Positions 1,075 to 22,975 of a DNA stretch of 32,000 nt are shown in pieces. The notes under the pieces were generated by a model. That model did no database searches. It was not told where the DNA came from and saw only the letters and a program-made list of their open reading frames with translations. Source of the DNA: Staphylothermus hellenicus DSM 12710 (GTDB lineage: Archaea > Thermoproteota > Thermoprotei_A > Sulfolobales > Desulfurococcaceae); contig NC_014205.1 in NCBI RefSeq assembly GCF_000092465.1, positions 1,260,001 through 1,292,000 of the forward strand, given 5' to 3'. The position numbers were made by a program, and so were the translations under genes. The first letter of the stretch is position 1. Each line of letters begins with the position of its first letter.

Positions 1075-1555
1075 AATGGGTAATATGCGTCTCCTACGTA
1101 AACCTCCTCGTATAAAAGTTTTAGAAGCTATTGGCAGTATAGGTGATCAGAGAGTTAAGGTATTAGATGATCATAGAGCAGAAGTTGTTTCTAGCCGTGG
1201 AGACAGGGTTTACAAGGTTATTGTTGAGCCGGTTAAGCATAATGTTTACCACGCGTATAGTAGTGATAATGGAACAATATTCAGAGGCTACGTTGGCTAT
1301 CCAATAATTGCTTTTCTAATGACTAAGAGTGTTATACCTATAGATAAAGAAGTTATGAAGGCAGTCACAGGTGTTCCGTGGAAGGATTTGAATGAGAGAT
1401 ATAAGAAGTACAGTATTGTAGAGAATATTGTTTTGAATAGAGCTGAGAGAATGGGTGTTAGTAGAGAAATAATTATGGATTACATCAATATTGTTATGAA
1501 GAAGCTTGGATTACTAAAAATATACTTCGTCGAAGAATTAAAGAATAAATTCTAG
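1064..1555 (+). CDS. hypothetical protein (163 aa)
   Basis: Clean ORF coupled to the upstream small ORF. No catalytic motif recognised. Confidence 0.6.
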   Translation: MKNKMGNMRLLRKPPRIKVLEAIGSIGDQRVKVLDDHRAEVVSSRGDRVYKVIVEPVKHNVYHAYSSDNGTIFRGYVGYPIIAFLMTKSVIPIDKEVMKAVTGVPWKDLNERYKKYSIVENIVLNRAERMGVSREIIMDYINIVMKKLGLLKIYFVEELKNKF

Positions 1556-3292: not shown

Positions 3293-4149
3293 AGAGATGA
3301 TAGCCAAAAAGCCAGCAGCCCGATCATCATGGCGTATAACATGTTTTTTCGGGCTTTCTCCAATATTGTTTTATCATTTATTCTTTTAAAGCTCTTATAA
3401 GCCCATACCGTGTAGAGGGCTGCGGCGATAATTATTAGCACCATGTATAGTATCCCTGCTCCTCCAAGTATTCCAGCTAATATACCCATTAGTGAGCCTA
3501 GTATTCCAGCTGATAAAATGGTTTTTCCCGCGGTTTCCACACCATACTTTATAGGTATTGTTACGTATCCATATTTTTTATCTCCGACAATATCTATTGT
3601 TGCCTTCAATACTTCTCTACCAGTAGTTATAATGAAGATTGTTGTGGAGAACAGTATTGTGAAGACAAGCTTGTTTATCGGCATACCTGCTAATATGTAG
3701 CCATAAATTATTGGCCCAGTAGTGCTTATGGATACTATGAAGTGGCTCCACCAGTATTTTCTCAAATAACTATACATGTATCCTACCACACTATATGTTA
3801 GCGCAGTTATTAGGGGTGCTATGCCTAGGAAAATATTGATAAACGGTATAATGATAAGCATGGATATGCTGGAATAATATATTGTTCCAGGATCGATTCT
3901 CCCACTAGGTATAGGTTTCCACGGCTTATTCACAGCATCCACTTCTCTATCAACATAATCGTTTATCAGCATAGATGATGCTGCTCCTAGATAACCAGTT
4001 ATGAATCCAATGATTATGCATAGTGGGCAGTCTATACTATAATCTGTAAATACGAGATATGCGAAAACAACGCCTATACCGGTCATGAACGAGTTAATAG
4101 GCCGTGTCGTGGCAAATAATTCCTTTAACCAACCCAAGATATTGGACAC
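3289..4149 (-). CDS. UbiA-family prenyltransferase, likely digeranylgeranylglyceryl-phosphate synthase
   Basis: 286 aa, polytopic membrane protein. First Asp-rich motif NDYVDREVDAVNKPWKPIPSG (NDxxDxxxD). Size matches archaeal DGGGP synthases. The substrate assignment is inferred. Confidence 0.75.
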   Translation of the reverse strand: MSNILGWLKELFATTRPINSFMTGIGVVFAYLVFTDYSIDCPLCIIIGFITGYLGAASSMLINDYVDREVDAVNKPWKPIPSGRIDPGTIYYSSISMLIIIPFINIFLGIAPLITALTYSVVGYMYSYLRKYWWSHFIVSISTTGPIIYGYILAGMPINKLVFTILFSTTIFIITTGREVLKATIDIVGDKKYGYVTIPIKYGVETAGKTILSAGILGSLMGILAGILGGAGILYMVLIIIAAALYTVWAYKSFKRINDKTILEKARKNMLYAMMIGLLAFWLSSL

Positions 4150-4245
4150 CCTATAATATATTGGCTTAACAATTCTTTTATCATTGAAACAATAAGTATT
4201 TCTGAGTAAATAAAATAATTCTCCTAAAACAATTCATATCTACAT

Positions 4246-4312
4246 AGATGATGAAACGACGGTAAACCATACTCGTTAAAACGGGGATGAGGATCGTTCT
4301 CCTAACTGATGC
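4246..4312 (+). ncRNA. candidate C/D-box sRNA
   Basis: C box AUGAUGA at 4248-4254. C'-like AUGAGGA at 4287-4293, followed by exactly 12 nt (UCGUUCUCCUAA) and D box CUGA at 4306-4309, then a T-tract (tgctgttttta). Total about 65 nt, in an intergenic region. Weaknesses: no good D' box, weak terminal stem, and no convincing (10 nt or longer) rRNA target within this window. Confidence 0.3.
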
Positions 4313-6800: not shown

Positions 6801-6807
6801 GGTGAGT

Positions 6808-10008
<3,201 letters not shown>

Positions 10009-10009
10009 C

Positions 10010-10431: not shown

Positions 10432-11940
<1,509 letters not shown>

Positions 11941-12083
11941 TTGCGGCCGCAAGGGGGCGGGGCTCCTTTTAGGGGTCGTAGAGTTTGTGGAGCCCCCCTC
12001 TTCCCATAAAGCATACTCTATAGTGTTCGGGGGCAGGTGTTCTCCCACCCCCTGTGTTGAGAAGGGGGTGTGTTTTCCGGGGA

Positions 12084-12119
12084 GGGGGTTGTATTGTTCC
12101 TCTCCGGCTTCGACCCCTC
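12084..12119 (-). other. 16S pre-rRNA processing stem, 5' strand (leader)
   Basis: Perfect 36-nt complement of 10216-10251. Confidence 0.85.
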
Positions 12120-12244
12120 GTCAGACCCAAGCGTCCCAGGGGTAGGTGTAAGCTTAATCATTCTATTTGTCAACTATGCCCCTGGGGGGCTTGGGTCTCC
12201 ATCGGTGATTGGTAATCGTCTGTATGATTATTGGGTGTTTCGGG

Positions 12245-12923: not shown

Positions 12924-13015
12924 TGGAGCCGCCGCCGGGATTCGAACCCGGGACCTCCGCCTATCCAGGATAGAGTTACCAGGGCGGCGCTCCAACCAGG
13001 CTGAGCTACGGCGGC
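12924..13015 (-). tRNA. tRNA-Thr (GGU) with 14-nt canonical intron; CCA encoded
   Basis: Cloverleaf: GCCGCCG-UA-GCUC...GAGC-G-CCGCC-CUGGUA[intron 12976-12963, ACUCUAUCCUGGAU]A-GGCGG-AGGUC-CCGGG-UUCGAAU-CCCGG-CGGCGGC-U-CCA. The BHB central helix is CUGG/CUGG with 3-nt bulges. Confidence 0.9.
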
Positions 13016-14114: not shown

Positions 14115-14885
14115 ATGAATAAATTATTTAGCATTATCCTCGTACTGGTTATTGCTGGTTTTCTAATTATAAGTACATCCGGTGTTAATTCGCCTCAAAA
14201 CATTAATGCTCACGAGCCTGAAATACAAGAAATAATAAAGAATAATGTGCCAATATATTATCTAGGCCATGATCTCCGTGAACTCCAGAAAATATTTGAA
14301 AATATTTATCCTCTTCAAAACAAGCTTCCAATAGGAACACATATATTAATCGTTGAGGGAGCCTATGCTAGTAAACACATGGAAGCCGAGGAGATCATGA
14401 GAGAGGAGCTTCTTAGAAGCGTTCCCATCATAATCATTAATGGCCATACAGAAATACTGCGTTCAATAATACCTTCAGATTTTAAACCCGAAATCATTAA
14501 TGGGAGATCACCTATTAATGAAACGGTGAATGAAGCAGTTTATGGATACCTAGTCTATTCCACTAAAAATGCTCTCGTACAAAGTGTGTTTATTTCAACA
14601 GATCCAGGGGAAGAAGGAATTATAGAAGCATATAAATGGGCTGTTCGAAACACTGTTTCCGTTAGCCATACACCTAATCCTAACATAGTAGACTCAACGT
14701 ACAAAACTGAAATATATCAGTTAAGTATTTCCACAGGCAACAGCTGGTTTCCCTACGGGAGATTAGAAGTTGCAACACAATATTATAAGTTGATCAATGA
14801 TTATTCAAATACTTATGACTGGTATATTGCTCATATTATTCAACAATCCGTTCCAGGAGATAAGATCTGGGGCAGAAACGTATAG
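14115..14885 (+). CDS. hypothetical secreted/membrane-anchored protein (possibly the 5' part of a disrupted gene)
   Basis: N-terminal signal/anchor MNKLFSIILVLVIAGFLIISTSG. The ORF ends right at the start of an AT-rich plus GC-rich insert-like region. See the finding on 14871-15166. Confidence 0.6.
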   Translation: MNKLFSIILVLVIAGFLIISTSGVNSPQNINAHEPEIQEIIKNNVPIYYLGHDLRELQKIFENIYPLQNKLPIGTHILIVEGAYASKHMEAEEIMREELLRSVPIIIINGHTEILRSIIPSDFKPEIINGRSPINETVNEAVYGYLVYSTKNALVQSVFISTDPGEEGIIEAYKWAVRNTVSVSHTPNPNIVDSTYKTEIYQLSISTGNSWFPYGRLEVATQYYKLINDYSNTYDWYIAHIIQQSVPGDKIWGRNV

Positions 14886-14980
14886 TGTTGCTTTCGTAAT
14901 ATTTATATGCTGTTGTTTCAGGGAGGATTTATATATGTGTTTATTATATGTGTTTATCTAGATATTTTGTTTGATGATGA

Positions 14981-15165
14981 GGCTTTGGATCCCGCGCTCG
15001 ATATGTAGGGGTAAGCTAAGCCCGAATGGGCGCGGGTTTAGAAGTATCCGAAGATGTGGGGAGCACTCCGTTCCCCCCGAAAGCCCCTCAATGAAGATGG
15101 GAGAGGGGAAGGCTAGCCGTAGCAAAAACAACAAAAGTTACGGCTAACCAGAACGGTTCTGGTTG
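14981..15165. other. GC-rich structured element of unknown class (ncRNA or MITE-like insert)
   Basis: A local GC island between two AT-rich ORFs. On the + strand a closing stem GGCUUUGG (14981-14988) / CCGAAAGCC (15077-15085) encloses GGAUCCCGCGC...GCGCGGG..AUCC and GGGGA...UCCCC hairpins. Further elements are hairpin UAGCCGUA (15114-15121) / UACGGCUA (15139-15146) with an A-rich loop, and the palindrome CCAGAACGGUUCUGG (15148-15162). It is bracketed by UGAUGAUGA (14972-14980) and CUGA (15174-15177). Strand not determined. Confidence 0.4.
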
Positions 15166-15178
15166 GAGAACTGCTGAC

Positions 15179-15598
15179 ATGTATACATGGATAGATGTAG
15201 ACCATTATAACTCTAATTATATGCTTACAAATTATGATCCCACTACAACTCTAAAAGCCTCCACAGTAACTATTACAGTTTTTCCTCCAGTCCTAAGTAT
15301 GGAGAACCAATTGCCATATTCATGGAGTTATCCAGCAAGCAATGTCCACATAATCGATCTAAGCGATTATTCATTGAATCTAGCTAAGTGGTGGCATAAT
15401 ATAGCTGAAGATACAGATCTAGGCTCTACTGTTTATCGTATCGAGCCAGGAGCATTGATCAGGGTTCCACAAGATTCACCTATTGATTGGCAAGAACACT
15501 ATGGAGTAAAATATGGCAGACAAACCAGTCTCTGGTGGTTCCCATGGTGGCACTACTGGGAATACACAGGTGAGGGATGGATAGAGGTTAAAGTCTAA
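15179..15598 (+). CDS. hypothetical Trp/Tyr-rich protein (possibly the 3' part of the disrupted gene 14115-14885)
   Basis: 139-aa ORF. The reading frame is open upstream to 15095 without a start codon. Confidence 0.55.
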   Translation: MYTWIDVDHYNSNYMLTNYDPTTTLKASTVTITVFPPVLSMENQLPYSWSYPASNVHIIDLSDYSLNLAKWWHNIAEDTDLGSTVYRIEPGALIRVPQDSPIDWQEHYGVKYGRQTSLWWFPWWHYWEYTGEGWIEVKV

Positions 15599-15729: not shown

Positions 15730-15854
15730 TGGAGCCGGGGGCGGGATTCGAACCCGCGATAAAGCGGGTTTCCGTGAACCCCCTTACAGGGTATGGTTTG
15801 TTATAGATTATGGGCCCTGCAGCCCGCCGCCTTAGACCGCTCGGCCACCCCGGC
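15730..15854 (-). tRNA. tRNA-Cys (GCA) with about 47-nt canonical intron; CCA encoded
   Basis: GCCGGGG...CCCCGGC-U-CCA acceptor with U73. Anticodon arm GCGGG-CUGCAG[intron about 15816-15770]A-CCCGC. T arm GCGGG-UUCGAAU-CCCGC. The variable region appears to be 6 nt (UUUAUC), so the exact intron borders are less certain. Confidence 0.8.
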
Positions 15855-19927: not shown

Positions 19928-20038
19928 TGCCGCCGCCGGGATTTGAACCCGGGACAACCGGATCTCCCCTGAGCTCGGCCGACTTCGGACCATGACTCCG
20001 TATGAGTCCGGCGCTCTGCCAGGCTGAGCTACGGCGGC
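19928..20038 (-). tRNA. tRNA with CAU anticodon (elongator Met type; Ile2 cannot be excluded) with 37-nt canonical intron
   Basis: GCCGCCG-UA-GCUC...GAGC-G-CCGGA-CUCAUA[intron about 20000-19964]A-UCCGG-UUGUC-CCGGG-UUCAAAU-CCCGG-CGGCGGC-A. G1-C72, so not an initiator. No CCA encoded. Confidence 0.8.
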
Positions 20039-20465: not shown

Positions 20466-20562
20466 GGGCCCGTAGCCTAGCCAGGATAGGGCGCCGGCCT
20501 CCTAAGCACAGTATTTTAGCAGGGCCAGCCGGAGACCCGGGGTTCGAATCCCCGCGGGCCCG
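20466..20562 (+). tRNA. tRNA-Arg (CCU) with 22-nt canonical intron
   Basis: GGGCCCG-UA-GCCU...GGGC-G-CCGGC-CUCCUA[intron 20505-20526]A-GCCGG-AGACC-CGGGG-UUCGAAU-CCCCG-CGGGCCC-G. TATA-like ctatatat lies about 35 nt upstream. Confidence 0.85.
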
Positions 20563-22875: not shown

Positions 22876-22975
22876 TGGTAGCCGGGCGGGGATTCGAACC
22901 CCGGTCACGGGGGTTCTCCCCAGAATCTATGACTGGGCCAGAGCCCCGCATCCTTGGCCGCTAGACGACCCGGCT
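22876..22975 (-). tRNA. tRNA-Gln (CUG) with 24-nt canonical intron; CCA encoded
   Basis: A1-U72 acceptor (AGCCGGG / CCCGGCU). Anticodon arm CGGGG-CUCUGG[intron 22937-22914, CCCAGUCAUAGAUUCUGGGGAGAA]C-CCCCG. Textbook hBHBh' motif: H = CUCU/GGAG, bulges GGC and AAC, h' = CCAG/CUGG. Confidence 0.85.

Follow-up and report, generated by a model that had tools for sequence, protein, structure and literature searches.

Protein-less PATE-like elements "often encode omega-RNAs" that act with TnpB in trans (Meers et al. 2023, PMC10055086), the term PATE being that of Dyall-Smith et al. 2011 (PMC3119063). Here we describe a related structure in Staphylothermus hellenicus DSM 12710, within a stretch of 32,000 nt (in the following called the window): a 284-bp insert that interrupts a secreted-protein gene and contains a GC-rich, strongly folded island. 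The insert is probably a protein-less (PATE-like, or miniature inverted-repeat transposable element (MITE)-like) derivative of a TnpB insertion sequence, with the omega-RNA scaffold retained. Mini-transposons of this kind are known, and the GC island is no new RNA class. An original prediction, made from the letters of the sequence, had recognized inserted mobile-element-like DNA within a gene, and its hint at a MITE or a mobile non-coding RNA pointed in the right direction. Its statement that the element fits no known class was superseded, because the element is homologous to a tnpB 3′ end, an omega-RNA scaffold and a transposon right end.

Like PATE-like and minimal IS200/IS605 elements (PMC10055086, PMC3119063), the insert has no protein gene, a hairpin at its right end and a structured RNA over the 3′ end of tnpB; it likewise has neither inverted terminal repeats nor a real target duplication and would need TnpA and TnpB in trans. 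It differs from them in being known as one copy, in having no identified left end and in its host, a hyperthermophilic crenarchaeon. Unlike them, it also keeps decayed tnpB codons, which marks it as derived by deletion and not as a streamlined palindromic element. In contrast to the usual pattern of Y1 transposases, it has GG on both sides of its TGGGG site.

The omega-RNA, or right-end element RNA (reRNA), of IS605 and IS607 elements spans the final ~150-200 nt of tnpB and continues to the right end, forms a multi-hairpin scaffold on the tnpB strand and takes its guide from the flank (PMC10055086, bioRxiv 10.1101/2023.11.20.567912), a layout that the insert resembles. No Rfam family matches the insert; a sequence relation to the characterised bacterial omega-RNAs is not expected, and the likeness lies in position and scaffold. 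The IS607 serine recombinase TnpA_S is reported to integrate at 5′-TGGG-3′; both junctions then hold a strict GG core, and the element ends in ...CGG (bioRxiv 10.1101/2023.11.20.567912). The insert is similar in its site TGG/GG (the slash marks the junction), in GG at both junctions and in its right junction ...AAC/GG, a match that could be chance as it concerns one insertion. Unlike in IS607, no serine recombinase gene was found in the related metagenome contigs L093 and L092 or in the Desulfurococcales loci, and palindromes such as the 9+9 one at the right junction have not been described for IS607. With the TnpB elements of Staphylothermus marinus and of metagenome-assembled genomes of Desulfurococcales (loci L005, L087 and L008-L086) the insert shares the GAUG(U/A)GGGG hairpin, CCCCGAAAGCCCC, a CCCC...GGGG helix, a right-end hairpin and AACCA(C/G). 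It differs from them in its shortened hairpins, with ~16 nt deleted in the second loop, and in ending with CCAGAAC instead of CAACCAC.

The interrupted gene and the boundaries of the insert

Judged by their homologues, the open reading frames (ORFs) 14115-14885 and 15179-15598 are the halves of a single gene, since undivided ~400-aa homologues span the break. One of them, the Thermococcus piezophilus protein P0002 (394 aa, 49% identity), covers 94% of the fusion made in silico. In a HMMER search with P0002, the two S. hellenicus halves hit its residues 4-250 and 258-389, each separately. The exhaustive search yielded 384 cluster representatives (E ≤ 0.001), and among the best 150 listed, most are single proteins of ~390-430 aa. 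The first ORF is 100% identical to P0001, annotated as a hypothetical protein of S. hellenicus; this 256-aa ORF extends to 14885, and its last 4 codons (GRNV) and the stop codon come from the insert. The second is the annotated hypothetical protein ADI32414.1/WP_013143612.1, a 139-aa ORF whose annotated start is an internal ATG at 15179, while its frame is open back to 15095 without a start codon. The original prediction had already described the open frame correctly, and its proposal that the two ORFs are parts of one gene was borne out by the P0002-type single homologues that cover both. Most likely, the insertion has inactivated the host gene; at best, the gene would be expressed as two fragments.

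No Pfam domain was found for the host-gene family, and a single-sequence AlphaFold model of an intact homologue was uninformative (predicted local distance difference test score of 39). A few members of the family (P0002, P0129-P0276) are fused to PKD/Hint or InlB B-repeat domains. A metagenomic homologue, P0003 (290 aa; contig L002, 213-1085), is also truncated, ~25 codons downstream of the S. hellenicus break, and a near-repeat of the last ~30 nt of its gene lies 70 nt further on (L002, 1085-1200). This truncation is an independent disruption within the same gene family.

At the break, the homologues read W-(D/H)-S-(S/G)-W-K-T-A-D. Removing 14871-15154 (284 nt) yields ...DKIWGSGWRTAD... (DKIW-G-SGWRTAD), with the spacing of the homologues. 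Deleting 14871-15166 (296 nt), as proposed originally, does join the two frames but leaves a 4-residue gap compared with the homologues. We therefore prefer the 284-nt junction, which keeps the homologue spacing W-x-S-G/S-W without that gap. The right end is fixed at 15154 by the CCAGAAC with which both the insert and the TnpB element of L093 finish. GG stands at both junctions (TGG/GG at 14868-14872, AAC/GG at 15152-15156), and since GG flanks both sides, the boundaries are accurate to ±2 nt. In its uninterrupted form, the empty site reads ...GATAAGATCTGGGGTTCTGGTTGGAGAAC.... The features of the locus are as follows.

14115-14870, plus strand: N-terminal part of the disrupted secreted-protein gene (identity to P0001; aligns to P0002 residues 4-250)
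14868-14872, plus strand: left junction TGG/GG; empty site TGGGG, reconstructed as ATCTGG/GGTTCTGG (from the sequence and the homologue spacing W-x-S-G-W)
14871-15154, plus strand: protein-less insert of 284 bp, probably derived from a TnpB-type insertion sequence (without it, frame and homologue spacing are restored; the 3′ end is the right end defined by homology)
14871-14976, plus strand: AT-rich left part, presumed left end and promoter region (TATA-like boxes; marginal similarity to S. marinus left ends)
14977-15053, plus strand: putative decayed tnpB 3′ coding remnant with zinc-ribbon codons ...ICRGKLSPNGRGFRSIRRCG... (BLASTP and a 14/14-nt match to L093)
15054-15110, plus strand: omega-RNA-like scaffold core (91% identity over 45 nt to L093; nhmmer; covariance model)
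15111-15154, plus strand: right-end hairpin and terminal motif AACCAGAAC (aligns to the right-end hairpin of the family)
15146-15164, no strand: perfect palindrome of 9+9 nt, AACCAGAAC-G-GTTCTGGTT, with the right junction at its centre (element end in one arm, ancestral gene in the other)
15155-15598, plus strand: C-terminal part of the disrupted gene (matches P0002 residues 258-389)

Near the two junctions an imperfect direct repeat can be read, TCTGG..AGAAAC at 14866-14879 and TCTGG..AGAAC at 15158-15171. The original prediction had located it correctly and interpreted it as a target-site duplication. That interpretation fails, because the reconstructed empty site already holds both TCTGG copies (W-G-S-G-W codons), so that the repeat was not made by the insertion. 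The downstream copy is ancestral coding sequence, since it is conserved in homologues without the insert; window positions 15157-15190 are 88% identical to 971-1004 of L002, one such homologue. This also bears on the idea that the insert is a classical MITE, mobilised by a cut-and-paste (DDE) transposon and bounded by terminal inverted repeats and a target-site duplication. The small size, the AT-rich portion and the direct repeat near both junctions would fit such an element, which we nevertheless regard as extremely improbable. Besides the ancestral origin of the supposed second copy, no terminal inverted repeats of the insert were detected: when its two ends are compared in inverted orientation, the best match is 9 nt long with one mismatch and lies internally, and its exact inverted repeat of 8 nt is internal as well. 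In addition, the right end has its homologues in the ends of TnpB elements; these elements duplicate nothing or retain the core dinucleotide only.

The restored frame could also be explained by an archaeal intron that the splicing endonuclease, acting at a bulge-helix-bulge (BHB) motif, would remove from the mRNA, leaving the gene functional. The insert lies on the strand of the gene, its removal restores the frame, and the tRNA genes of the window are long and probably intron-bearing; cbf5 mRNAs of crenarchaea are described as carrying BHB introns (PMC2738675). We searched for the canonical motif, in which a 4-bp helix has a 3-nt bulge on either side and an outer helix in addition. A scan of all pairs of exon end and exon start around the junctions gave no canonical BHB at in-frame junctions consistent with the homologues, and the candidate built by hand, CUGG/CCAG, has neither flanking helix. 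Furthermore, the insert is homologous to transposon DNA, and Rfam gave no group I or group II signal. Splicing is thus a very unlikely explanation compared with a transposon-derived insert.

The junctions of this insert have further regularities. Perfect 9+9 palindromes like the one on the right junction occur 5 times in the 32 kb, 3 of these in rRNA, against an average of 0.98 in shuffled sequences, and it is unlikely that one would fall exactly on the junction by chance. A weaker palindrome, TCTG-GGG-CAGA, lies at the left junction (14866-14876), and CAGAA(A)C is found in direct orientation at both element termini. The sequence that follows the right end in L093, GCAGAAAT, is similar to the left terminus of the insert. 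These features suggest that target choice may involve similarity or complementarity to the element ends. The junction palindromes and the terminal CAGAA(A)C are unexplained by the known mechanisms of TnpB elements. The palindromes could be accounted for if the insert were a live, self-promoted mini-transposon with a guide RNA as its only product, which uses its own TATA box and a TnpB from elsewhere that would cut the empty site TGGG + GTTCTGGTTGG..., and which targets sites complementary to its own termini; both the perfect palindrome on the right and TCTG-GGG-CAGA on the left would then follow from the pairing of target and termini. We consider this improbable, and we know of no TnpB element for which a rule of end-to-target pairing combined with GG-core junctions has been described.

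Homology of the GC island to the tails of TnpB elements

A pattern derived from the core of the element matched three metagenome contigs. One of them, L093, encodes a full-length TnpB (920-2089, 389 aa, PF07282 with an E-value of 9e-20), and its 3′ region matches the window in three colinear blocks.

Window 15016-15029, L093 1946-1959: 14/14 nt, zinc-ribbon codons L-S-P-N-G
Window 15052-15096, L093 2105-2148: 91% of 45 nt (41/45), E-value 2e-12, scaffold core
Window 15101-15112, L093 2186-2197: 12/12 nt

L093 ends with ...GGGCUGAAAAGCCCAGAAC, and the terminal CCAGAAC is shared by the insert. At the protein level, residues 11-30 of a 58-aa ORF overlapping the insert match residues 336-357 of the L093 TnpB (BLASTP, E-value 0.002), with the zinc ribbon ICRGKL--SPNGRGFRSIRRCG facing VCGGELDLSPNGHRLMRCLRCG. 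Compared with L093, the window is without ~110 nt and ~35 nt in the tail and without nearly all of tnpB. The ORFs that overlap the insert are only 54-58 aa long and include no intact transposase or nuclease gene; the 58-aa ORF gave no Pfam match.

Directly upstream of tnpB, and overlapping its start, L093 (548-919) and L092 (~3974-4310) carry a conserved ORF of ~120 aa, for which Pfam gave no match in the L093-type element. In L092 this ORF begins with ATGAGGCTA, resembling window positions 14977-14985 (ATGAGGCTT). We also considered ATGAGGCTT as a retained tnpB start codon, which seems less likely, as L093 aligns 14981-15050 to the zinc-ribbon region instead.

S. marinus carries TnpB genes (PF07282) of a large Desulfurococcales family with 629 matches at E ≤ 1e-20, mostly from metagenomes of hot environments. 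When translated, the GC island gives fragments that resemble TnpB C-termini. In this family, the last ~180 nt of tnpB up to the right end ...GCACGGGCAACCAC are conserved more as nucleotides than as protein. The C-terminal 40-60 residues come as ...PKAPDQMQTQEGMKGKPV..., ...PKAPEGDETPNPMKGKPV... or ...PKAPQPYANPRRDEGEA..., and the termini PDQMQTQEGMKGKP, PEGDETPNPMKGKP and PQPYANPRRDEGEA, among others, look as if one conserved stretch of DNA were read in shifted frames. This is the mark of selection acting on the nucleic acid more than on the protein. In the last ~120 nt of tnpB in L008-L027 and further loci (proteins P0014-P0127), the stop codon sits in the loop of the right-end hairpin.

We fetched 79 loci of the S. 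marinus-type TnpB family and built an alignment (A4) of 25 tails, each beginning at the ASWN codons and finishing at the right end ...GCACGGGCAACCAC. The consensus structure consists of a hairpin GGGGxx...xxCCCC, a CCCC...GGGG helix, the right-end hairpin and a long-range UGG...CCA pairing. The family hairpin covaries, with both sides changed at two pairs in 10 of the 25 sequences. By eye, the parts follow each other in the order GAUGUGGGG, hairpin, CCCCGAAAGCCCCU, then after an interval GGGGAAGsC, hairpin and AACCA. A long-range helix UGGGUUA/UAACCCG was dismissed, since its covariation was inconsistent on inspection of alignment A3 and it was absent from the RNAalifold prediction.

From the 25 Desulfurococcales/S. 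marinus tails only, with the window excluded, we built a covariance model (R1) and scanned the whole window with filters off; by the statement of the tool itself, its E-values are rough. The best match, 15021-15151 on the plus strand, covers the full length of the model with 18.0 bits and an E-value of 4.7e-4, the next match having 0.059. The tail of the genuine full-length TnpB gene in L093, used as a positive control, gave 16 bits (E-value 5e-4), and closer family members reached 33-125 bits. The score of the window is therefore that of a true but distant member. A profile of the TnpB tails based on sequence only (nhmmer) had its sole window match at 15045-15093 (E-value 0.005). The right end of the insert aligns to the family right-end hairpin GCCCGUGC...GCACGGGC-AACCAC. 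A joint MAFFT alignment of window, L093 and family tails was too gapped to inform folding.

The GC content is 0.47-0.55 over ~14950-15150 against ~0.33 in the flanks, and 55% for the island at 14981-15154. On the plus strand the island folds with -70.2 kcal/mol (z = -4.07, none of 200 shuffles as good), compared with z = -2.53 for the minus strand; several stems hold G-U pairs that would be A-C mismatches on the minus strand. The minimum free energy (MFE) fold consists of four hairpins side by side, 14983-14999/15028-15053, 15058-15064/15070-15076, 15084-15089/15103-15108 and 15111-15123/15137-15149. A structured, multi-stem GC island had been predicted from the sequence, and this part stands; the single closing stem with nested hairpins of that proposal is not what the MFE fold gives. 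The tnpB remnant at 14977-15053 is folded as a long stem, in which 14983-14999 pair with 15028-15036 plus 15046-15053. The scaffold core comprises GAUGUGGGG, the hairpin 15058-15064/15070-15076, the linker CCGAAAG and the helix CCCCUC/GAGGGG (15084-15089/15103-15108), followed by GGGGAAGGC, and the right-end hairpin 15111-15123/15137-15149 has a 13-nt A-rich loop.

A GC island with a strong fold in the genome of an AT-rich hyperthermophile may also be a cellular small-RNA gene in its own right, for instance for a long C/D-box RNA, a kink-turn (K-turn) RNA or another, unclassified archaeal small RNA, lying between separate genes or mobilised. The motifs UGAUGA and CUGA, which the original prediction had read as C and D boxes, are indeed present (TGATGATGA at 14972-14980, CTGA at 15174-15177), and there are weak Rfam matches to snoU83B and sR49 (E-values ~1-2.5). 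The C/D-box and K-turn idea itself did not hold. The boxes are about 200 nt apart (194 nt) and have no terminal stem, the CUGA lies inside conserved codons of the host gene (ADM), and the best C/D matches, with 17.2 and 15.5 bits against gathering thresholds of 35 and 50, reach less than half of the cut-offs. At gathering thresholds, Rfam found only rRNA and tRNA in the window and no match for the insert, and a permissive scan of 14700-15400 gave nothing better than an E-value of ~1. Moreover, the flanking ORFs are one gene, no counterpart was found in S. marinus at the syntenic locus or in the 21 kb fetched, and the homology to tnpB tails explains the sequence. A cellular RNA gene thus appears to us a most unlikely origin of the island.

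The homologies instead identify the GC island as a putative decayed tnpB 3′ end, a scaffold overlapping this 3′ end and the transposon right end. For the family, we infer from its position, its covariation and the nucleotide conservation across shifted frames that the corresponding region is an omega-RNA.

The left part, copy number and partner proteins

The AT-rich left part contains the TATA-like TTTATATA at 14928-14935, a tandem 13-bp duplication (TATATGTGTTTAT twice, 14932-14957) and a weak predicted hairpin at 14879-14909. Its similarity to the left-end and promoter region of S. marinus elements is marginal, as scores at least as high arose in 1-3 of 300 shuffles. In the Desulfurococcales family the left ends are unrelated to that of the insert, starting with GACTAT... 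against GGCAGAAAC..., and the left boundary of L093 and L092, poorly defined from two copies, does not match the left part of the insert. In tblastn, TnpB N-termini gave 24 bits on the minus strand (15027-14956), the same as a spurious internal TnpB segment, and this hit was discarded as chance. Between the left end and tnpB, L008 (~1230-1440, minus strand) and its equivalents in L009-L069 carry a small conserved divergent ORF (MSYVYCFEAKIMKYGGGRYIIYPPKEYQEKLKQFHGRRVKV...), which gave no Pfam match and no recognisable transposase.

The S. marinus locus syntenic to the window has neither the host gene nor the element, and the 21 kb fetched show no direct DNA similarity to the insert. In S. marinus F1 (L005, 11050-19920), a ~9-kb block replaces the split gene between the orthologues of two proteins of the window, a HAD hydrolase and a 361-aa protein; it carries a TOP6A fragment, a sugar ABC transporter, a TnpB element and an MFS transporter.

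With regard to copy number, two independent assemblies of S. hellenicus read sets break off within the element, one at 15037 and one at 15042, and sequence resumes in a neighbouring contig from 15095 on (Logan contigs L088, L089 and L090). At its other end, this neighbouring contig reaches 29 nt into the tRNA gene at 20466, as expected for a k = 31 graph at a repeat. By analogy, ~15008-15124, the TnpB-homologous core, is probably present more than once in the genome, which is a hint and not a measured copy number. The search for further copies proposed originally thus gave none within the window and a hint from the assembly breaks at copies elsewhere.

The mechanism that we envisage begins with a TnpB-encoding insertion sequence of the IS200/IS605-IS607 "OrfB/TnpB" group, which would have inserted into the TGGGG site of the secreted-protein gene, either arriving as 284 bp without an intact gene or decaying in place to this length. 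From left to right, it would consist of the AT-rich part with archaeal TATA-like boxes, ~75 nt of decayed zinc-ribbon tnpB, the scaffold and the hairpin-bearing right end. In intact relatives, RNA is transcribed through the right end, with a 3′ tail that copies the flanking DNA. TnpB takes this tail as guide and cuts the empty site (transposon-associated motif plus flank), and the element is thereby retained in the population. Protein-less copies rely on TnpA and TnpB in trans. The element presumably has its own promoter, the 284-bp unit may be, or may once have been, mobile, and a partner TnpB may be encoded in the genome.

Several observations weigh against the interpretation as a protein-less TnpB derivative with a retained omega-RNA scaffold. 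The scores are modest (18 bits for the covariance model, 9 bits for the profile), the left 106 nt have no convincing homology to any definable left end, and one copy was seen, with no second one in the 32-kb window. Scans of genome and metagenome contigs with peptide patterns of the 58-aa ORF gave no match, not even to the window itself, S. hellenicus being apparently absent or masked there, and scans of viral contigs and plasmids gave no match either. No S. hellenicus TnpB is among the best 120 of the 629 S. marinus TnpB homologues, for which reason the partner nuclease may be absent. For the omega-RNA role in this archaeal TnpB family, no experimental test was found in the literature.

Some of these points are shared by a less favoured scenario, in which the element was of full length when it inserted and deletions at this locus then removed its interior, so that the insert would be an inert fossil rather than a 284-bp mobile unit. 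The ~110 nt, the ~35 nt and the tnpB sequence missing relative to L093 point to several deletion events, the left part has no demonstrable left-end homology, and S. hellenicus is not represented among those best 120 TnpB homologues. Against this stand the almost perfectly paired stems, the 55% GC kept in a genome of 36.8% GC (PMC3236042) and the assembly breaks, which suggest a near-identical core of ~117 nt elsewhere in the genome. As the stems are almost fully paired and the assemblies break there, recent activity or several copies fit better than an old fossil, which we regard as possible but doubtful.

Genome setting and implications of the element

The genome of S. hellenicus has 1.58 Mb, a GC content of 36.8%, one rRNA operon and 69 pseudogenes (PMC3236042). 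The window carries the archaeal rRNA operon and tRNA genes. Four Rfam tRNA matches of 89-122 nt (12927-13015, 15733-15854, 19928-20038 and 20466-20562) were all missed by ARAGORN, and these long matches presumably contain introns. Conversely, a 100-nt tRNA-Ala at 22876-22975 was called by ARAGORN alone and is not listed by Rfam. The 23S rRNA match at 6807-10009 measures 3203 nt against the 2987 positions of the model and may contain insertions or an intron, both of which are known in rRNA genes of the Desulfurococcales. Upstream of the 16S rRNA gene lies a GC-rich stretch rich in G-runs (11940-12150), and one Logan contig starts at 12090, a hint of a repeat ending near 12119.

The finding corrects the annotation of two S. 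hellenicus "hypothetical proteins", which are fragments of one disrupted gene. In AT-rich genomes of hyperthermophiles, GC islands, which classically signal RNA genes, can be scaffolds of TnpB guide RNAs and not cellular RNA genes. No Rfam model covers the archaeal TnpB scaffolds, so they will recur as "unknown structured RNAs". The GG core together with the right-end palindrome gives a small lead on the target choice of archaeal elements. The Desulfurococcales tails (A4, R1) could seed an RNA family and offer thermostable pairs of TnpB and omega-RNA.

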